A stretch of 41,122 bases of DNA from Candidatus Babeliales bacterium. Lineage in GTDB: Bacteria; Babelota; Babeliae; Babelales; Vermiphilaceae. The notes under the pieces are model-generated. The model was not told the origin of the DNA. It searched no databases and saw only the letters and a list, made by a program, of their open reading frames with translations. Positions 2,049-10,342 of this stretch are shown in pieces. Numbering within the stretch: the stretch's first letter is position 1; each line of letters begins with the position of its first letter. The position numbers were made by a program, and so were the translations under genes. The stretch is taken from positions 1 through 41,122 of the forward strand of contig CAVUQO010000001.1 of NCBI GenBank assembly GCA_963743635.1, in the 5' to 3' direction.

Positions 2049-2312
2049 TTAACCGATTCTTACTAACTCTTTTGGTATTTCTTGTGTGAAGCTGTGCTGC
2101 TTTTGTGAATTCATGAAGCCATAAGAACAGCGCAATATGAGGTTCTTTGCGTCACTCATGTTTTCAAGAAATGCTGTGTATGACCATGTGCCCTTTGCTC
2201 CCGTTAGAAGTTGTCTTTCTCCCAGAATGAGTCGCCATGGCAAAACAAAGCCTTTCTTTTCTATGGCTTGTCTAAGCTCAAATAGGTAATAGTACAGGTA
2301 ATTGGCCTTCAC
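2049..2312 (-). CDS. Hypothetical protein of the mobile element (possibly the frameshifted N-terminus of the primase gene)
   Basis: 87-aa ORF; its GTG start overlaps the upstream stop (GTGA). Confidence 0.5.
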   Translation of the reverse strand: MKANYLYYYLFELRQAIEKKGFVLPWRLILGERQLLTGAKGTWSYTAFLENMSDAKNLILRCSYGFMNSQKQHSFTQEIPKELVRIG

Positions 2313-2908: not shown

Positions 2909-3982
2909 TTAATCCTCAATGGGAACCTCGTTGATTATATTCTTGTAACTTTGGCTAAGTGCGAGCCAGGTTGCCCGCATGGTGTCAGGTTGTACGTGTT
3001 TGATATTTGCATCATTGCTCGCTTGAGTGAACGAATGATTGATTCTGGATCGTGTCAGCGGTCTTCCTTTTCTTGTAATGAATACATAGTTACTGTCTTT
3101 TCGTTGTTCTTGTGTTGATGCGATGTAGTCAGCTAATTTCTTCATGAATGACTCTGGGTAGTCTACGGGTCTTTCATATACAATATTGTTCTTTGTTTGC
3201 GGAAATCTAATGATGTTTTTGTGAAAATCAACTCGATCCAACGTGAGTTCAAGAACATCGGATATTCGTGCGATACCGTAAAACATAGAGAGGGCGATTA
3301 GATAATCTCGATAGTTGTTTTTGGCCAATGCGGCATTGAATTTTTTCAGGTCTTCGAGTGAAAGAGCTTTCCACGTTGTTTTGAGTGTAGAGCGGTAAGC
3401 AGATCTCTTTAGGGATGTTACGGGCTGCACTCTTCTAAACCAGCCATCGGTTATACGTTCGAGATAGATAGTAAATGAGATGTAGCATTCAATGCGTGCT
3501 TTTCTTGCAGCCTCGGACAAATCAGTCATCTGTTCTATATACTCTATGATTGATTTTTGATTGATATGCCTCAATCCACCAACGCTGAAATCCTGTCCAC
3601 TGGAAAAAGTGAGAGGAATAGCATTTCTGTTTAAAAGATCGGTCATATATGATGCATATTTGATACGAGTGTCTTCTTCTAGCCCGTTGAGCCATAGAGG
3701 AGTAATGTCGGTTACGGCGATGTAATCGAGTTCATCATTTAGGATACGTTGAGCCCGCTTGATTGCTTCCCGAAGTTGAAAAACCTTATACGTTCCCTCA
3801 GTGAGTTTAAGGATGGGGAATTGTTTTTCAACGACATGCATTTTTTCTAGCACTATTTTCGTTCTTGCAAGATCTTCTTCGCTCATCGGCGGGATGATAA
3901 TATCCTGCGACAGTTCGAGATACTTATCAAACTCCTCCGGCGAAGGTAAGGACGAGCAAGATTGTTTAGTGAGCATACGCAT
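2909..3982 (-). CDS. Tyrosine recombinase of the chlamydial plasmid pGP7-D/pGP8-D type, apparently catalytically incomplete
   Basis: ARIECYISFTIYLERITDG, NYRDYLIA..FYGIARISDVL (box I Arg) and VFITRKGRPL are present. HxxR reads DTMR, and the protein ends 21 aa after that Arg with no box II H/W...Y. Confidence 0.85.
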   Translation of the reverse strand: MRMLTKQSCSSLPSPEEFDKYLELSQDIIIPPMSEEDLARTKIVLEKMHVVEKQFPILKLTEGTYKVFQLREAIKRAQRILNDELDYIAVTDITPLWLNGLEEDTRIKYASYMTDLLNRNAIPLTFSSGQDFSVGGLRHINQKSIIEYIEQMTDLSEAARKARIECYISFTIYLERITDGWFRRVQPVTSLKRSAYRSTLKTTWKALSLEDLKKFNAALAKNNYRDYLIALSMFYGIARISDVLELTLDRVDFHKNIIRFPQTKNNIVYERPVDYPESFMKKLADYIASTQEQRKDSNYVFITRKGRPLTRSRINHSFTQASNDANIKHVQPDTMRATWLALSQSYKNIINEVPIED

Positions 3983-4014
3983 TCCTTTGGTGTTTTTTAT
4001 AGTTAATGGCGATC

Positions 4015-4043
4015 ACTATACTACTGTTCTCTGTTCTGTGCAA
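4015..4043 (-). promoter_or_regulatory. sigma70-like promoter of the recombinase
   Basis: Minus strand TTGCAC-17 bp-TATAGT, 33 bp upstream of the start codon. Confidence 0.65.
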
Positions 4044-4068
4044 GTTTTACATCACAACGTATATAATT

Positions 4069-4194
4069 TTATTGCGGGACAGGTAACCTGAGTTCTGAAA
4101 AGGCCGTCTGAATGCGTTGCAAACTAAAATCGAATGTGATATCCTTGTTAAGGAATAGGTCTACTAAGGGCCGGAGCTTCTTCATGAAGTTCAC
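4069..4194 (-). CDS. Small peptide of repeat copy 1, 41 aa (MNFMKKLRPLVDLFLNKDITFDFSLQRIQTAFSELRLPVPQ); candidate antisense-controlled toxin or leader peptide
   Basis: GTG at 4194 (or ATG at 4185), with GAGGA upstream inside the hairpin. Ungapped homology to the copy-4 peptide, with synonymous codon differences. Confidence 0.6.
   Translation of the reverse strand: MNFMKKLRPLVDLFLNKDITFDFSLQRIQTAFSELRLPVPQ
4117..4145 (+). promoter_or_regulatory. sigma70-like promoter for copy-1 sRNA, inside the antisense peptide ORF
   Basis: TTGCAA-17 bp-TATCCT with an extended -10 TG. Confidence 0.6.
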
Positions 4195-4237
4195 ACATAA
4201 AATTAGATCCTCTGGAGAAATCCAGGGGATTTTTTTT
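4152..4237 (+). ncRNA. Repeat copy 1 (subtype A): putative ~85-nt structured sRNA
   Basis: Hairpin gagcttc-ttcat-gaagttc; 27-bp core gaagttcacacataaaattagatcctc (4186-4212); terminator atcctctgga-GAAA-tccaggggat followed by a T tract. Confidence 0.6.
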
Positions 4238-4254
4238 ACATAAAAATGCGGTTT

Positions 4255-4283
4255 ATTTTAGAATGAAGTAGGAAGGCTTTTAA
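4255..4283 (-). promoter_or_regulatory. Possible promoter for the copy-1 peptide mRNA
   Basis: Minus strand TTAAAA-17 bp-TAAAAT pointing into the repeat. Confidence 0.35.
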
Positions 4284-4306
4284 GGCCCTACGATTGGAAG
4301 GGGAAA

Positions 4307-5080
4307 TTGTTTATGTTATTGCCAGAAAAATTTAACCAAGGGTACATTATTGAGTGGGTGTATGAAGGGAAAGGGCTTAGAGATTTTACCGATGATGATT
4401 TGCGGTTTATCATACCTCTTGATCAACGATTTAGAGAAAGACAAAGACTTGCAAATGAGCTACGCGAAAAAATTATTAACCCCCTAATAGTTTTGAAGAA
4501 TAAGCACTCTATCTTAAAAGAGGTTTTGATTCGTTCAGAAGAAATCAGTCATAGTTTGCTGTATAAATTAATCGAGGACTCTGCGAGACAAAATATAACA
4601 GATTTTTACGATCTGATGGATAAATTTATTGATTTGCTTGGGCAATATAAAAATAATTATTCACCTTTGTTTAATAAAGACTCTCAAAAAAAACTTCTTA
4701 AGGCTTGCAGTACGCCTGAAAACATTGATAAATACTGCGAACTAAGCAATCTTATCGATCAAAAAAGGAATTACCTATTTTCGTCGTTTAACCAAAATGG
4801 TGAGATCCAAAAAGATAGCTGGTGTAAGCTGATCGATGATGTGAGAGCAAATCGGGATAAAATAAAATCTTATCGCGATAAAGTCGCAAGTCATGCAGAT
4901 GACGAATTAGTTAATTTAAGCTGGAGAGAGGCGGGACAGGCAATAGAATCTTTTCTTAATTATACCTCTGCCATTTCTACAGTTCTTTCGTTCGGTAATC
5001 GCTTTGAAACGGGTCTCTCCGACATTGAACAAATGATTAAAATACTGCGCAGCATATTATTTGAGAAAAATAGAGCATGA
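4307..5080 (+). CDS. HEPN-domain (AbiU2-like) putative RNase
   Basis: Helical-looking protein with YRDKVASHAD (Rx5H HEPN motif); SD aagggga upstream. Confidence 0.6.
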   Translation: MFMLLPEKFNQGYIIEWVYEGKGLRDFTDDDLRFIIPLDQRFRERQRLANELREKIINPLIVLKNKHSILKEVLIRSEEISHSLLYKLIEDSARQNITDFYDLMDKFIDLLGQYKNNYSPLFNKDSQKKLLKACSTPENIDKYCELSNLIDQKRNYLFSSFNQNGEIQKDSWCKLIDDVRANRDKIKSYRDKVASHADDELVNLSWREAGQAIESFLNYTSAISTVLSFGNRFETGLSDIEQMIKILRSILFEKNRA

Positions 5081-5898
5081 AGAATATAAAAGATATAGTG
5101 TTGGTTTTTGTGAGTACGATCTTTATTACTCCGGTGCAGGCAATAACTCTCGTGAAAGATTCCAAAATGTATATTCCCATAGCTCTATTATCTCCTGGTC
5201 AGATTCGCTTTACGCAAGCCAATGTGGATACTAAAGCGGTAAAATTGTCTCGATCTAAGGGACATTATGATAATGGTAATAGTTCCATACAAGAGACCAA
5301 TCCAATTCCCGTTGTTCTGGGTCCTGATAATCTCATCATCTTAGTCGATAGTCATCATGAATGTCTGGCGGCGCAAAAAATTGGCGATACAACCGCACCA
5401 GTCTTAGTGGTTGATGATTTGCGTCATTTAAATAGGTCAGCATTTTTCAAACAGGCGCAGGCCAACAATTATATATATCCTTTTGATTTCATGGGTGATC
5501 TTATGCCGATGTCCGAGGCTGGATGGTATACCTGGAGGCAGATGCAGGATGATCCAAATCGCCTTTTTGCAGCATTTACCGCATGGAAGTGTAGCAATGA
5601 TGGTAAGTGGACCAAAGATCCTAATGCCACGCAGGATCCTGCGTATCCACTTTGGATAAAAAAGGCGCATGAAAAGGTAAAAATTGCTTTTATTGAGTTC
5701 AAAATGGCAACAGTCTTATACCAGGCAGGATTGCGATATGATTATGCTTGGGGAACTAATCCAAATGATGAGCGCGTTGCTCAATTTACCGAGCAGGCAC
5801 GTTCAGTTTTAGTGAAAGCACTCGACGAAGAGCGCATTTCATCGTTTGATCTCATTCCAGAAAAGTTAGCATTGGATGAAATAATAAAGAATCAATGA
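5077..5898 (+). CDS. ParB-like nuclease family protein (ParBc_2-type) with N-terminal signal peptide
   Basis: LSPGQ, PIPVVLGPD, VDSHH and DDPNR motifs; ATGA overlap with the HEPN gene. Confidence 0.75.
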   Translation: MKNIKDIVLVFVSTIFITPVQAITLVKDSKMYIPIALLSPGQIRFTQANVDTKAVKLSRSKGHYDNGNSSIQETNPIPVVLGPDNLIILVDSHHECLAAQKIGDTTAPVLVVDDLRHLNRSAFFKQAQANNYIYPFDFMGDLMPMSEAGWYTWRQMQDDPNRLFAAFTAWKCSNDGKWTKDPNATQDPAYPLWIKKAHEKVKIAFIEFKMATVLYQAGLRYDYAWGTNPNDERVAQFTEQARSVLVKALDEERISSFDLIPEKLALDEIIKNQ

Positions 5899-5972
5899 AG
5901 TGCTCAGTAATGGCGCCTGCATGAAGTTCACACATAAAATTAGATCCTCGCACGAAAGTGCGGGGATTTTTT
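5897..5972 (+). repeat. Repeat copy 2 (subtype B, ~9-bp internal deletion relative to copy 3); would also terminate the HEPN-ParB operon
   Basis: Identical 27-bp core at 5923-5949; hairpin atcctcgcac-GAAA-gtgcggggat followed by a T tract. Confidence 0.85.
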
Positions 5973-6059
5973 ATGCTTAAAAGTGTGTCTTGTTCAGTGC
6001 GCGCAGCTCTCAGTCAGCTTGAATGGTTGAAGCATTTTTGCCTGTAGGCCCGCAGGAAT

Positions 6060-6347
6060 TTAATCGAGGTTATCGAGTTCGAGCTTTTTTCTATTTTTAC
6101 GACGTCTTCTTTTCGCATAAAGGGTATGCTTCCGAGAAAGGGTCCTTTTTGGCTTATTGCGTTGTTTGCCATGCCTTGTGCCACAAATACAGCTATTAGC
6201 CTGGCAAGCACAGGCGCAGCATGAATATGAGGTCTTATTAAGGGATTGGCTTTCTGGAGAATTCTCCAGAAATAGCGGATTCATGAGAGAAATAACAGCT
6301 AATAAGCTGCCAAGCGTCTTACGGGTTATTGCCATTGGATCTTTCAA
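6060..6347 (-). CDS. Small putative secreted protein with a Cys cluster and a very basic tail
   Basis: Hydrophobic N-terminus, CCACACQANSCIC, then KRRRRKNRKK. Confidence 0.55.
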   Translation of the reverse strand: MKDPMAITRKTLGSLLAVISLMNPLFLENSPESQSLNKTSYSCCACACQANSCICGTRHGKQRNKPKRTLSRKHTLYAKRRRRKNRKKLELDNLD

Positions 6348-6487
6348 GATATTTTATTAGCTATATTAAATTTAAGAATATCCGTATTTAGCCTTTTTGA
6401 AAAGAGATAATAGAGCTTTTTCGCTATTTACAAGCATTCTGAGGTATAGATCAAGGAAAGGGGGGACCAGCCCCGTTATGCGTCCTG

Positions 6488-6524
6488 TAATGCTTCGAAG
6501 TGCTGGCTGCGCTTCGAAGCATTA
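6488..6524. repeat. Perfect 13-bp inverted repeat
   Basis: taatgcttcgaag ... cttcgaagcatta. Confidence 0.7.
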
Positions 6525-6631
6525 GCGAAAAGGTGATACAGCGATTAAGTTGCAAAATAGATGAAAAATGAATTATTGATGGTTTTTTGCTTTTGGTAAT
6601 AATTGTTGTAGCTTGTGTCATCTAAAAGTTC

Positions 6632-6714
6632 GAAGTGTGGATAATGACGTCCGGAACTTCATCACGAAGTTCACACATAAAATTAGATCCTCGCACGAAA
6701 GTGCGGGGATTTTT
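6632..6714 (+). repeat. Repeat copy 3 (subtype B): putative sRNA, antisense to an 18-aa ORF at 6618..6674 (MNFVMKFRTSLSTLRTFR)
   Basis: Perfect hairpin gaacttc-atcac-gaagttc; identical core at 6666-6692; terminator as in copy 2. Confidence 0.85.
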
Positions 6715-6842
6715 ATGCCTAAAATTGTTGGATTATGCCTCTCAGAGCGACCCTTTTGCGAAAATATCCAAAGATGGTAAAATGAATGTAAGTATAGGTG
6801 TTATACTTACATTATTTAATAATAAATCCTTAGGAGGATACA

Positions 6843-7187
6843 ATGAATTTAAAAACTATAACAGCAGTAGCACTCAATGTCGTTACGCTTACATGCTTGG
6901 CAACACCAGTAAAAATGCCAGACGAAAAGACGCTCAATAAGAGAATGGCCGATATCGGCATGAATCATTTTGCAGAAAAAACGGGAATCGTAAAGCAGAT
7001 GGCCGGCCAACAAAAAGAAGCTCTTGCAGTTGTAATGGCTGTAGAATTAGCTCTATATGATTATGCAGAACTCGTGAAGAACCCTGCAGTGACTATAACA
7101 GCAAACATGAATAAAAATATGGTTATAGAAGCATTCTTACAGGATCATCCTGAAAAATTACAAGAACTAGCTCAACAGGGCTTATAA
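6843..7187 (+). CDS. Putative secreted hypothetical protein
   Basis: SD aggagg, signal-like N-terminus, and its own terminator. Confidence 0.8.
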   Translation: MNLKTITAVALNVVTLTCLATPVKMPDEKTLNKRMADIGMNHFAEKTGIVKQMAGQQKEALAVVMAVELALYDYAELVKNPAVTITANMNKNMVIEAFLQDHPEKLQELAQQGL

Positions 7188-7214
7188 TAAATAATATTGA
7201 TCCTTGATCATAAG

Positions 7215-7245
7215 AAAGCCTCAGAATTAAAACTCTGGGGCTTTT
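7215..7245 (+). terminator. Intrinsic (possibly bidirectional) terminator
   Basis: aaagcctcaga...tctggggctttt lies between convergent ORFs 6843..7187 (+) and 7299..7433 (-). Confidence 0.7.
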
Positions 7246-7298
7246 CTTGTGCTTAGCAATCGATCAGATAGCCATTAATGGTAGTTTTCTTCAGAGCT

Positions 7299-7433
7299 TC
7301 ATATCCATCTTCTTTTTTCAGCTCTTTCTATCTCCTCAAAGAAGGTTTGAAAGTGATGTAAACTAACGGTATACTGGATCTCTCCGATACGGAATTTGTC
7401 TATTAAGGACCAGAGCTTCTTCATGAAGTTCAC
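7299..7433 (-). CDS. Small peptide of repeat copy 4, 44 aa (MNFMKKLWSLIDKFRIGEIQYTVSLHHFQTFFEEIERAEKRRWI)
   Basis: Homologue of 4069..4194; it is the 3' part of track ORF 7299..7499. Confidence 0.6.
   Translation of the reverse strand: MNFMKKLWSLIDKFRIGEIQYTVSLHHFQTFFEEIERAEKRRWI
7347..7375 (+). promoter_or_regulatory. sigma70 promoter for copy-4 sRNA, inside the antisense peptide ORF
   Basis: TTGAAA-17 bp-TATACT. Confidence 0.7.
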
Positions 7434-7474
7434 ACATAAAATTAGATCCTCTGGAGAAATCCAGGGGATTTTTT
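7382..7474 (+). ncRNA. Repeat copy 4 (subtype A): putative ~90-nt sRNA
   Basis: Near-identical to copy 1 from 7391 onward; core at 7425-7451; same terminator. Confidence 0.6.
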
Positions 7475-7525
7475 GTTGAAAAGACATTAAAATAAGCATT
7501 ACTTTATAGTAGATAAGGGATTTTC

Positions 7526-8104
7526 ATGAAGCGTATGTTATATAACGGTCTATTGGGCCTCTTGATTGGTGGCTCACTGCTCTGCGCAATAAATTCTTTA
7601 GAAAAATCAGCGCATGACACCACTATAATTCGATCTCATATTGAAGCGTATCAGAAAGATAAGCATCATGATTTTGTCGCAGATCTCTTAGCTCGCGATC
7701 CGCATAACTTTCCGGATGCTGATATGGTATCCGATCTTGATAGTGATATTGTTGAAATCAGCCTGCAACTTGAAAATGGTCAGGTTGTTACATGTGTTTT
7801 TAAACAGAAGATATTTATATGTTGTCGTGGTGTCGAATCAATCGGTTTTGTGCGGATTTTTAGTATACCTGAAGCTCAGAGTGGTATGATTGCCCAAATG
7901 ACGGTTAAGAAAGATTTTCGTCGTATGGGCGCCGGTACTCAATTACTCAAGCATGCGATTGAAAGCCTTAAATCTGAAGGTATTCAAGAAATAACAACTG
8001 AGTCTGTGGCCGATAATAAAGCTGCGCATGCATTATATGAAAAAATTGGTTTTGAAAAAATGGCTGAACTGCCAGATAGTTACGTCTATAGAATGCAGCT
8101 TTAG
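7526..8104 (+). CDS. GNAT family N-acetyltransferase with signal peptide
   Basis: VKKDFRRMGAGTQLL (motif A) and NKAAHALYEKIGF. Confidence 0.9.
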   Translation: MKRMLYNGLLGLLIGGSLLCAINSLEKSAHDTTIIRSHIEAYQKDKHHDFVADLLARDPHNFPDADMVSDLDSDIVEISLQLENGQVVTCVFKQKIFICCRGVESIGFVRIFSIPEAQSGMIAQMTVKKDFRRMGAGTQLLKHAIESLKSEGIQEITTESVADNKAAHALYEKIGFEKMAELPDSYVYRMQL

Positions 8105-8122
8105 AAGCGTGCGCTCAAAAAG

Positions 8123-8175
8123 ATGAATTCATAAGTTAAATTAGATCCCTGCAAGAAATTGCGGGGATTTTTTTT
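8123..8175 (+). repeat. Repeat copy 5 (degenerate, third hairpin variant)
   Basis: atgaattcataagttaaattag followed by atccctgcaa-GAAA-ttgcggggat and a T tract. Confidence 0.7.
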
Positions 8176-8263
8176 ACACATTTTCCCCTTTATTGCATCC
8201 GACATGCACAATTTGCTACGTATAAATAAAAATGGCTTACGAACCTCGAAGGGGTCACATATT

Positions 8264-10342
8264 ATGCGTTATTTAAAGCATCTTCTTTTAATCTTATCAT
8301 CTACTTTATGTAGTCCTCTGCTTTCTATGCAGCAGAACATTCCAAAGGGAAAGGAGCCAGCATCAAGCAGTAGGACGACAAGGTCATCAAATAACCAACC
8401 TCAAGCGGACCCCATGGCTTATTATCCAGCTGGTCTCGTTTTTGAAGAGAGCGGAGATTATGAGAATGCTGTTAAAAATTATGAATTGGCAATACAAGAG
8501 AAGGTTAATTACGCTGATGCATGTATCAATTTAGCCAACTTGCTCTCGAAAGGTTTGGGTGCAAAAGCCGATATTCCGAGAGCGATTAAACTTTATAAAA
8601 GAGCAATAGAGAGTGGCCGTATCGATCAGTATTACAATCTTGGACTACTCTATGAAAATCTGCAAGATTATGATCGAGCATTCATAAACTATGAATTGGC
8701 AATAGAAAAAAATCCTAGCTCAGCTGATAGTGCACATCTTAATTTAGTCAATGATAGTGCACGTCATAATTTAGCCAATTTATTTATGTCTGGCAGAGGT
8801 TGTACACGCGATGTTTCTAAAGCCAAGGCGATGCTTGAAGAATTGGCGCGAAAAAACAATGCGTATGCTCTTTATAGTTTGGGTATTGCATATCTAGGTG
8901 GAATCGAAGGTATCCAAAAAGACCCTCAGAAAGGGCGCGATTATTTACTCAAGGCAGAAAGAAAAATAGAGGGTTCAAACGATGAAAGTGAACGGTTGTT
9001 GTATCCTCGAGTACTTATCGCTTTAGGTTCTTTGTCAGAATGGGGAATAGGTACAGGGAAGTCAATTAAAGACGCCAGCACATATTATACTAAAGCCGAT
9101 AGTATAAGAGGAAAAACGCACCTAGCGCGCTTGGTACTAACAGGAAAAGCACGTGGTGATATCGAGAAAGCAAAAGAAGATCTGAAGTCCTATTCACCAA
9201 AGGATGCAGTCGCCGCATATATATATGGCACGCTTTTACTTGAAGAAGGCAAGTCTGAAGATGCGGTCAGGGTTTTTGAGACCATATCCAAGCAAGCAGA
9301 TTTTCCTTTAGTGCTGCTGCAATTAGGCATAGCATCTCACTACGGTGTTGGTACTGTAAAAGATGAGAAAAAGGCACAGGATTATTTTAAAAAAATCGAT
9401 GAAGACGAAGACGATAGTTTTCAATCACCGTGGCTTGCTCGCGGGTATATGAGTCTTTTGGGTCTTGGCGTACCGCAAGATATCAACAAAGGCTTAACGT
9501 TAATAGACAAGGCAAAAGACAAAAAAGATGACGTCTTCTTTTCTGTTGACCAGTTGTTTCCAGCAGTCAAAAGAATACGCGTTGAGTTTGCCGCAAAAAA
9601 TGCTGCAGAGTTGCTTCGAGAGGAGTCTGAGCGAGAAGAAGAGAAAAGGAAGAAGAAGGAAAAGGGCAAGCGTAAGGCTCAGGGCGGCGCAAGCAGTGCA
9701 AGCAGCGCAATCAGCGAAAGCAGTGCAAGTAGTGCAAGCAGCGCAAGTAGTGCAAGTAGTGCAAGTAGTGCAAGTAGTGCAAGTAGTGCAAGTAGTGCAA
9801 GCAGCGCAAGTTCGTCAAAAGTTGTTGAACAGCCTTCTGTGGCATCGCCGGCAGCGTGGAATACGAAATTCATGGTAAGCGATAACAGTTCTGTCAGTAG
9901 TGTAGATCTTGGCAAAAAACAAATTATTATTGATGATCCAAAACGTCATGAGCAGCTTATTGTTAAAATATCAGATCATCCTAACCGTACATTTGCTCAA
10001 ATTGCGACGCTGCGCTCGCGTGAATTTAAAGACATTAAGAAGCTGGTGTATGATCAATGGGTTCTGAAGCGTCAAGGGGAAATGGGAGATCCACTTGATG
10101 CAGAGACTATACATAATCATACCTTTGCGCAGATGCTTGACTACGTCATACAATATGCAGGAAAGTTTATTCCTTTTCTTAAAAGTGGCTCTTCAGAGCC
10201 AAAAGACGAGTTGATAGCCAAGGTTACGCGTCGCGATACGCAGACTAATAAAGAAGTACGCTGTAAAGCTGAGTATACATTCTATGATATGAATGGGCAG
10301 CTCTATGTTTATCACCGTTTATTAAGGCCTGTGCCGGTATGA
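8264..10342 (+). CDS. Sel1/TPR-repeat secreted protein with basic patch, Ser/Ala linker and unknown C-terminal domain
   Basis: Repeated nLa.l...G.G...D motifs. The likely start is ATG 8264 (MRYLKHLLL) rather than TTG 8159. Confidence 0.88.
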   Translation: MRYLKHLLLILSSTLCSPLLSMQQNIPKGKEPASSSRTTRSSNNQPQADPMAYYPAGLVFEESGDYENAVKNYELAIQEKVNYADACINLANLLSKGLGAKADIPRAIKLYKRAIESGRIDQYYNLGLLYENLQDYDRAFINYELAIEKNPSSADSAHLNLVNDSARHNLANLFMSGRGCTRDVSKAKAMLEELARKNNAYALYSLGIAYLGGIEGIQKDPQKGRDYLLKAERKIEGSNDESERLLYPRVLIALGSLSEWGIGTGKSIKDASTYYTKADSIRGKTHLARLVLTGKARGDIEKAKEDLKSYSPKDAVAAYIYGTLLLEEGKSEDAVRVFETISKQADFPLVLLQLGIASHYGVGTVKDEKKAQDYFKKIDEDEDDSFQSPWLARGYMSLLGLGVPQDINKGLTLIDKAKDKKDDVFFSVDQLFPAVKRIRVEFAAKNAAELLREESEREEEKRKKKEKGKRKAQGGASSASSAISESSASSASSASSASSASSASSASSASSASSASSSKVVEQPSVASPAAWNTKFMVSDNSSVSSVDLGKKQIIIDDPKRHEQLIVKISDHPNRTFAQIATLRSREFKDIKKLVYDQWVLKRQGEMGDPLDAETIHNHTFAQMLDYVIQYAGKFIPFLKSGSSEPKDELIAKVTRRDTQTNKEVRCKAEYTFYDMNGQLYVYHRLLRPVPV
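9689..9814 (+). repeat. Coding 9-bp tandem repeat (gcaagYagY consensus, 14 units; mostly Ala-Ser-Ser)
   Basis: Read directly from the sequence. Confidence 0.95.

Follow-up and report, generated by a model that had tools for sequence, protein, structure and literature searches.

Two conserved minus-strand frames of a Babeliales contig are probably orphaned 3′ ends of large serine recombinase genes

The window, the whole analysed stretch of 41,122 nucleotides from a Candidatus Babeliales bacterium (contig CAVUQO010000001.1, positions 1 to 41,122), contains two short homologous frames on its minus strand, termed copy 1 and copy 2, which an earlier note made from the sequence alone had described as hidden homologous peptides under protein-level selection. 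By homology, both are members of a family of C-terminal tails of large serine recombinases (LSRs), enzymes that catalyse site-specific integration of mobile elements. The two copies are probably orphaned 3′-terminal coding segments of LSR genes whose element attachment site (attP) lies inside the recombinase open reading frame (ORF). Of the description in the earlier note, the homology holds and protein-like conservation is found across 26 copies; the status of free-standing genes is not supported, as 26 of 43 distinct copies are startless and the conserved module is a recombinase C-terminus.

Copy 1 lies in a minus-strand frame at 4069–4194 (41 residues from a GTG codon, with an ATG at 4185; MNFMKKLRPLVDLFLNKDITFDFSLQRIQTAFSELRLPVPQ), and copy 2 in a minus-strand frame at 7299–7499 (66 residues, with an internal ATG at 7424) that contains MKKLWSLIDKFRIGEIQYTVSLHHFQTFFEEI. 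The tail module proper occupies 34 codons of copy 1, at 4075–4176 (LRPLVDLFLNKDITFDFSLQRIQTAFSELRLPVP), and positions 7314–7415 of the more diverged copy 2 (LWSLIDKFRIGEIQYTVSLHHFQTFFEEIERAEK), both on the minus strand and within the open frames. A recount of the gapless alignment, starting at the shared ATG, reproduced the 14 identities in the first 31 positions reported in the earlier note (14 over the first 31–32 positions, with 62 of 96 bases identical), and the four synonymous codon differences listed there (ttg/tta, cag/caa, acg/acc and gaa/gag) are present in both sequences. The copies are identical from a T-run through the ATG and three more codons and diverge past that point, base identity declining steadily from 12/12 to 2–4/12 with distance from the shared repeat.

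Taken alone, the pair does not bear out the argument for selection that had been drawn from its synonymous codons and conservative changes. Differences between the copies are spread evenly over codon positions 1, 2 and 3 (12/10/12), and other frames of the same DNA block reach residue identities (20/43, 21/43 and 19/44) at least as high as the 19/44 of the claimed frame. The ratio of nonsynonymous to synonymous substitution rates (dN/dS) of the pair is 0.42 by the Nei–Gojobori method, calculated on just 18.5 synonymous sites. In 20,000 runs of a neutral simulation preserving the local DNA identity profile of the pair, 14 or more identities arose with p of 0.23–0.49, four or more synonymous pairs with p of 0.15–0.39, a comparable BLOSUM score with p of 0.065–0.12 and an open frame with p of 0.18–0.32; open frame and score jointly gave p of 0.026–0.054, before correction for six frames. 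The protein likeness of the pair by itself is not beyond what its DNA similarity yields.

A word-based search of 5.8 billion proteins with both peptides returned as its sole match the window’s own 66-residue ORF, and would by itself have suggested, wrongly, an absence of relatives. Of the two copies, only the ORF of copy 2 is present in that collection, which fits the remark in the earlier note that the ORF track misses copy 1 entirely. Together with the pairwise statistics and the pattern scans described below, this outcome gave, at that stage, the appearance of a decaying DNA repeat. A local duplication in decay, its protein likeness due to chance, would be in keeping with the fall in identity away from the repeat, with the simulated identities and with the equal performance of other frames. 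It is barely conceivable in the face of the profile searches, which refuted it. A profile built from 28 copies in other genomes, with the window sequences excluded, was scored against 1578 window frames and found copy 1 at E = 4.9e-20 (67.4 bits) and copy 2 at E = 3e-10 (36.1 bits), while no other window frame scored below 0.3 (next best 0.32). Because this independent profile finds both copies, chance likeness between them is excluded.

Relatives of the module are widespread in the phylum, family and phylum being used here as labelled in the genome collection. A profile of the two window peptides matched 62 of 80 same-family genomes at E ≤ 1, many matches lying between 1e-14 and 1e-6; these were mostly free of stops, usually several per genome and often 1–2 kb apart. 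With a 30-row profile the module was found in 101 of 261 phylum genomes (E ≤ 1e-5), covering 13 of 21 families, and this phylum-wide profile scored copy 1 at E = 7.0e-19 and copy 2 at E = 1.0e-14. In a protein collection of 1.84 billion representatives, 165 proteins matched at E ≤ 0.001; among the best 150 of these, nearly all are 35–160 residues long, and the module is near the C-terminal end in most.

The fetched copies give the consensus W-R-x-L-V-D-x-F-R-N-G-x-I-x-F-x-F-S-L-Q-x-I-Q-T-x-F-S, or, in a second rendering, WRPLVDxFRNxxIxFxFSLQxIQTxFS, which by eye is not a membrane helix. An AlphaFold model of the 34-residue module with 30 rows showed two short helices at a mean predicted confidence (pLDDT) of 64.6, too low for use. 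Across 26 copies, conservation rises abruptly from about 0.1 to about 1 bit at a TGG codon, with which the module starts in 22 of the 43 distinct copies. Over codons 4–34 of the same 26 copies information is greatest at codon position 2, followed by positions 1 and 3, in a periodicity measured on copies that had been chosen with a protein profile in that frame, a choice that favours such a pattern; several hydrophobic columns retain only the middle T at codon position 2. As read from these aligned copies, the codon-position pattern has the signature of protein-level selection. Frequent stops in homologues, which the earlier note had named as speaking against such selection, do not occur: a stop interrupts the 31-codon core in 5 of the 43 copies, and 38 are stop-free.

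Another explanation of such a pattern would be small free-standing protein genes, antisense to a small RNA that ends at a hairpin terminator, in the manner of a type I toxin–antitoxin pair or a recombination cofactor. Both window copies indeed have an ATG and a stop-free frame of 38–41 codons, some in-frame start codon is found in 17 of the 43 copies elsewhere, gene callers predicted many such short ORFs (the 165 representatives above), and a consensus promoter scan places a plus-strand site, TTGAAA-17-TATACT, at 7347–7375, inside copy 2 and opposite its frame. The scan reports no site at copy 1. By eye, TTGCAA-17-TATCCT can be read there at 4117–4145 (8/12, under the scan threshold), 9 bp out of register with that of copy 2, in agreement with the offset of about 9 bp given in the earlier note. 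Against small genes stands the observation that in 26 of the 43 copies the stretch from the preceding stop to the conserved part contains no ATG, GTG or TTG, ATG being found in just 11. In the window itself, the ATG of both frames sits in the identical flanking repeat, outside the conserved module, and the sequence before it (GTGTGAACTTC-ATG), read by eye, has no Shine–Dalgarno-like sequence, which the neighbouring genes have. Furthermore, the consensus does not by eye look like the hydrophobic membrane peptides typical of type I toxins, the onset of conservation coincides exactly with the codon that marks the recombinase–tRNA junction described below, and the module is the C-terminus of intact recombinases. 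The family-wide lack of start codons and the exact coincidence with the recombinase–tRNA junction together make a free-standing gene an unlikely reason for the conservation.

The link to recombinases emerged from a genome (G017) in which a 192-residue ORF fuses the C-terminal part of a recombinase, rich in coiled coil (EVEEKRQLIKLVLQNLRL…KPFD), in frame to the module. Pfam assigned no family to this ORF alone; it matches 51 of the 80 family genomes, and its full-length relatives, 486–507 residues long, carry Resolvase, Recombinase and Zn_ribbon_recom domains (Pfam). This domain content identifies them as LSRs, and the order Resolvase, Recombinase, zinc ribbon is that of the Bxb1, PhiC31, A118, SprA and SpoIVCA type. 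The full-length LSR genes end in W-x-x-stop exactly where the module would begin, and in 9 of 11 cases (by eye) their frames run into the antisense 3′ end of a tRNA gene. ARAGORN detected a tRNA at the LSR end in all four larger loci (tRNA-Asp, tRNA-Arg, tRNA-Asp and tRNA-Glu), and in each of the four the complement of the tRNA CCA forms an in-frame TGG codon of the recombinase, 3–18 codons before its stop.

Recombinase bodies and modules are also arranged in a consistent way along the chromosome. A module lies within 25 kb on the same contig for 16 of 35 full-length-type LSR hits; in 15 of these it is upstream, on the same strand and 4.2–11.1 kb away, and one has only an opposite-strand module. 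The remaining 19 hits have no module at the threshold used, and a contig end is no more than about 2 kb from several of them. In the four elements examined, the start of the module duplicates the last 6–8 bases of the element’s own tRNA, the junction repeats being CCGCCA for tRNA-Asp (twice), CACACCA for tRNA-Arg and GGACGCCA for tRNA-Glu. The outer flanks of modules in other genomes resemble native tRNA trailers, with a CCA...TGG hairpin and GTCTTCGC...CGTCTGG motifs. The in-frame TGG on either side means that a junction formed at the repeat preserves the frame and yields one ORF again. A body beside the tRNA with a tail at the far junction beside the old trailer is what would be expected of an attP located within the recombinase ORF, the element integrating at the tRNA 3′ end.

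Unsplit genes of the corresponding form were found. Two proteins ending in the module, P0151 (532 residues) and P0152 (603 residues), both contain Resolvase and Recombinase domains and have bodies very different from each other, and the module likewise forms the end of a 522-residue ORF in genome G234, around which no tRNA lies within 12 kb. In at least 7 of 17 longer fragments inspected, a recombinase C-terminal region precedes the module in frame. Since the module is the C-terminus of unsplit LSRs, the tail is a genuine C-terminal part of such enzymes, and its conservation exceeds that of the remaining protein.

These observations can be combined in the following proposal. In LSR-carrying integrative elements of this lineage, attP would lie inside the recombinase ORF, about 35–40 codons before its end, and the recombinase gene would be split when the element integrates at a tRNA 3′ end. 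The recombinase body would remain at one end of the resulting island, stopping 3–18 codons after the crossover inside the antisense tRNA, whereas the tail (~31–35 codons) would go to the other end, 4–11 kb away on the same strand, and be fused there to the old trailer of the tRNA, with no start codon. Excision would rejoin body and tail into one ORF. Copies 1 and 2 of the window would be two such tails, joined at the same position to an identical flank of about 59 bases that provides a chance in-frame ATG. The protein-like conservation would then arise from selection on the full-length recombinase, body plus tail, in the unintegrated element, without any need to invoke selection for a small free peptide. 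The tail would also bear on the function or regulation of the recombinase.

Two parts of this proposal deserve separate statements of strength. The assignment of the two window copies to LSR genes with an internal attP is the probable one. Whether a whole bacterial lineage of LSRs carries attP in its own frame, such that integration swaps a tail of about 35 residues for a few tRNA-encoded ones and excision restores it, is evenly balanced between yes and no. If it is true, such LSRs would be bacterial serine-type equivalents of the archaeal ‘suicidal’ tyrosine integrases. The tail swap could be a built-in switch, with integrated and free enzyme differing in activity, stability or directionality, and its second half would be stored in the orphan tails, intact though startless, that are scattered in about 40% of the searched genomes.

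Several observations, in addition to the open frames with ATG in the window, which may be translated as small proteins, and the choice of copies in the periodicity analysis, weigh against this reading. Just three unsplit full-length tail-bearing genes were found, no full-length tail-bearing recombinase is among the best 150 of the 165 protein matches, and neither an excised circle nor an attP junction was observed. A search for the empty chromosomal site (attB) in five genomes of one genus located the flank in three, and both sites that could be placed were occupied. Several features of the window also fit poorly. LSR searches found no serine recombinase gene on its contig (C1), and ARAGORN no tRNA gene. 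The recombinase that does lie nearby, on the strand of copy 1 and 86 bases downstream of it, is a tyrosine recombinase and not a serine recombinase. At the junction the window copies have CTC instead of TGG, and no CCA, and their flank is a five-copy hairpin element unlike the trailers of the genome’s 34 tRNA genes; three copies of this element have no module, a repetition that the proposal does not explain.

Copy 1 lies 4.1 kb from the start of a contig that is only 41 kb long, so the recombinase and tRNA could lie beyond the contig start. For copy 2, the interval in question contains plus-strand genes only. Elsewhere in the same genome a decayed LSR abuts a tRNA-Asp gene, and a tRNA-Glu gene is followed at 3.2 and 4.8 kb by two further modules; the module near 239.2 kb, the only one of these two whose junction was read, begins with GGGACGC, resembling the tRNA-Glu end. 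These other two modules (locus L064, G000:C3:236500-243500) are set among paralogous GNAT acetyltransferase genes and a paralogous pair of genes of about 130 residues, and window copy 2 likewise precedes a GNAT gene. Many of the 34 tRNA genes of this genome (contigs C2 and C3) carry one of two stereotyped trailers, TTCATTTTT...AAAAATGAATGG or GTCTTCGC...CGTCTGG, in which a hairpin pairs the encoded CCA with a downstream TGG; these trailers are also found beside the tail modules of other genomes.

Conservation could also act on the nucleic acid, the module serving either as a recombinase-bound arm of a recombination site or as the main part of a plus-strand small RNA, with the open frame incidental. 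Part of the module is certainly constrained as DNA, as its first codons copy the tRNA 3′ end; the even spread of pair differences over codon positions also speaks for this explanation, and a plus-strand terminator with three covarying stem variants follows the module. Serine integrase half-sites are about 25 bp, shorter than the module, in which conservation extends over about 93 bases with a clear 3-base periodicity and some columns that keep only the second base. Moreover, the window has no Rfam family match, and full-length proteins from very different recombinase lineages terminate in these same residues. Constraint at the nucleic-acid level as the sole cause is very unlikely, and an orphaned recombinase tail remains the preferred reading of the two copies.

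The inferred arrangement is rated as a variant on the known logic of self-splitting integrases. As described in two published accounts (PMC8371274, PMC7253208), the ‘suicidal’ SSV-type integrases of archaeal viruses and plasmids (SSV1, pTN3, pT26-2) have the att site in their own ORF, so that the gene is split on integration at a tRNA gene, with pieces at both ends of the element and leftover fragments marking old integrations. The proposed tails would have in common with them a recombination site inside the integrase’s own ORF and a split at a tRNA gene, as suggested here by the junctions, the in-frame TGG and the unsplit genes. The SSV split divides a short N-terminal segment from the catalytic portion and presumably inactivates the enzyme, whereas here only the last ~35–40 codons of a bacterial LSR would be removed, leaving a body that retains all three Pfam domains. 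The review PMC8371274 describes such recombinases as exclusive to archaea, and they are tyrosine recombinases; unlike these, the partner enzymes of the tails are serine recombinases.

Other systems share single features. In the integration-dependent immunity of some mycobacteriophages, attP lies in the 3′ part of the repressor gene, the products of the integrated and free forms differ in length, and the integrase is a tyrosine integrase; there, as proposed here, integration alters the C-terminus of a protein, which is a repressor and not a recombinase. Islander-type islands, with displaced 3′ fragments of tRNA genes at their far end, carry a short direct repeat of the tRNA 3′ end at both island ends and form scar arrays beside tRNA genes (PMC4383910). 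Unlike in these, the conserved scar described here is about 93 bases of recombinase coding sequence, and the tRNA fragment just 6–8 bases. Type I toxin–antitoxin systems differ in the two respects already given, the startless copies and the consensus without a membrane helix. PMC10083194 surveys 6,207 LSRs together with their sites; in its main text the term tRNA has 0 occurrences, the supplements lying outside this count, and none of the passages retrieved deals with an attP inside the recombinase ORF. A literature search turned up neither a description of self-splitting by integration in a serine recombinase gene nor a paper containing both ‘Dependentiae’ and ‘serine recombinase’.

The family accounts for a set of short conserved ORFs that are overlooked in gene calling or wrongly annotated as hypothetical small proteins. 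Orphan tails combined with a tRNA-end repeat provide a simple marker that delimits integrated elements in small, poorly annotated genomes. If splitting and rejoining do take place, self-splitting integrase genes would not be limited to archaeal tyrosine recombinases, and whether a detachable C-terminal tail alters the directionality or stability of a serine integrase would become testable.

The two tails of the window abut copies of a hairpin element on the plus strand. In copy 1 the junction and flanking arm span 4177–4235 and comprise GAG CTTCTTCATGAAGTTCACACATAAAATTAGATCC, a 12-bp hairpin with a GAAA loop and a T-run; the corresponding arm of copy 2 (7416–7474) is nearly base-for-base the same, and it is these ~59-base arms that supply the in-frame ATG of the minus-strand frames. 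The element itself is about 50 bases long, consisting of a conserved single-stranded GAAGTTCACACATAAAATTAGATCC, the 12-bp GAAA-loop hairpin and the T-run, and occurs in five plus-strand copies within 4 kb (4186–4235, 5923–5972, 6666–6715, 7425–7474 and 8128–8178), each of which precedes or follows a plus-strand gene. The upper stem has three mutually compensating variants. Tail frames accompany only the copies at 4186 and 7425. Among the copies with no tail module, that at 5923–5972 lies directly behind a ParB-like gene and has the stem variant GCACGAAAGTGC, and that at 8128–8178, the most diverged, lies behind a GNAT acetyltransferase gene. The third (6650–6715, with the element from 6666) has CCGGA.CTTC in its left flank in common with the junction of copy 1, and the antisense frame there stops after 14–18 codons (by eye).

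The hairpin element may represent a family of terminators, a 3′ module of small RNAs or a secondary attachment site. As CCGGA is common to the unoccupied copy at 6650–6715 and the junction of copy 1, the element may, as a guess, be a secondary integration target. No sixth copy was found in the 1.45-Mb window genome and none in 60 relatives scanned. A scan of public genome contigs with the hairpin pattern gave 38 loci, 37 of which are ordinary terminators matching by chance; L025, from a record titled Candidatus Dependentiae MAG, has a near-identical hairpin in a different context, and Rfam and ARAGORN found nothing on it. A degenerate 21-mer searched in metagenome contigs gave five chance matches, all lacking the hairpin. 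Rfam gave 0 matches at the gathering score over the whole window on either strand, and the 11 matches obtained over 3900–8300 with an E-value threshold are all far below gathering scores. An integron-like reading of five hairpins beside a tyrosine recombinase was considered and rejected: no attC-like ends were seen by eye, and the recombinase is far below the NCBIfam cut-offs.

That tyrosine recombinase gene (2909–3982, minus strand) matches Pfam Phage_integrase at 5e-18 and a PHROG integrase family, and its Xer-like NCBIfam hits are all far under cut-off. Further towards the contig start, three minus-strand ORFs at 861–2021, 569–892 and 210–557 match consecutive parts of phrog_29234 (positions 354–639, 639–738 and 746–861), and phrog_19930, a DNA polymerase/primase, also matches the ORFs at 210–2021. 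These ORFs are one phage or plasmid primase/helicase-type mobile-element gene, broken by frameshifts and running toward the contig start. The primase-like ORF has no significant similarity to the cargo genes of two other elements.

Between and behind the tails, the genes are on the plus strand. A 257-residue protein of unknown function (4307–5080), with a weak HEPN/AbiU2 match under cut-off (E = 0.0065), and a ParB-like nuclease (5077–5898; PF08857, 1.5e-17) form a two-gene unit at 4307–5898 in which stop and start codons overlap; on these family matches the pair is possibly defence-type cargo. The ORF list contains an unknown 114-residue protein at 6843–7187, and a family library match identifies the GNAT acetyltransferase gene at 7526–8104. 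A Sel1/TPR repeat protein gene follows at 8159–10342, with SAS repeats within it.

Modules in other genomes show further arrangements. At locus L066 (G075:C34), two identical modules, at 2168–2285 (minus strand) and 5743–5860 (plus strand), are inverted about 3.5 kb apart and point outwards. At L065 (G001:C34, 1796–4964), three modules are spaced 1.5 kb apart. A terminator of bidirectional appearance precedes each of them, the opposite strand carries ankyrin-repeat genes in the intervals, and two units, 85–92% identical, form a tandem duplication. An 80-residue ORF, which presumably resembles a GIY-YIG family protein, precedes the module by about 330 bases in two unrelated genomes (L055, 928–1170, and L062, 915–1157, both minus strand).

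Among the sequencing runs listed, no RNA run contained the stretch. The contigs of four DNA runs that were compared with the window were all short and showed no joint at the modules. In run X2, from unrelated soil, a 727-base contig fits 6907–7412 with 4 differences and then continues with 221 non-fitting letters; the break at 7412/7413 is exactly the junction of module 2 and its flank, and, since the flank is repetitive, assembly may have produced it. In the Sel1/TPR gene, a contig of run X6 skips 36 bases of the SAS repeats at 9742–9779, a length polymorphism of the serine–alanine repeats.

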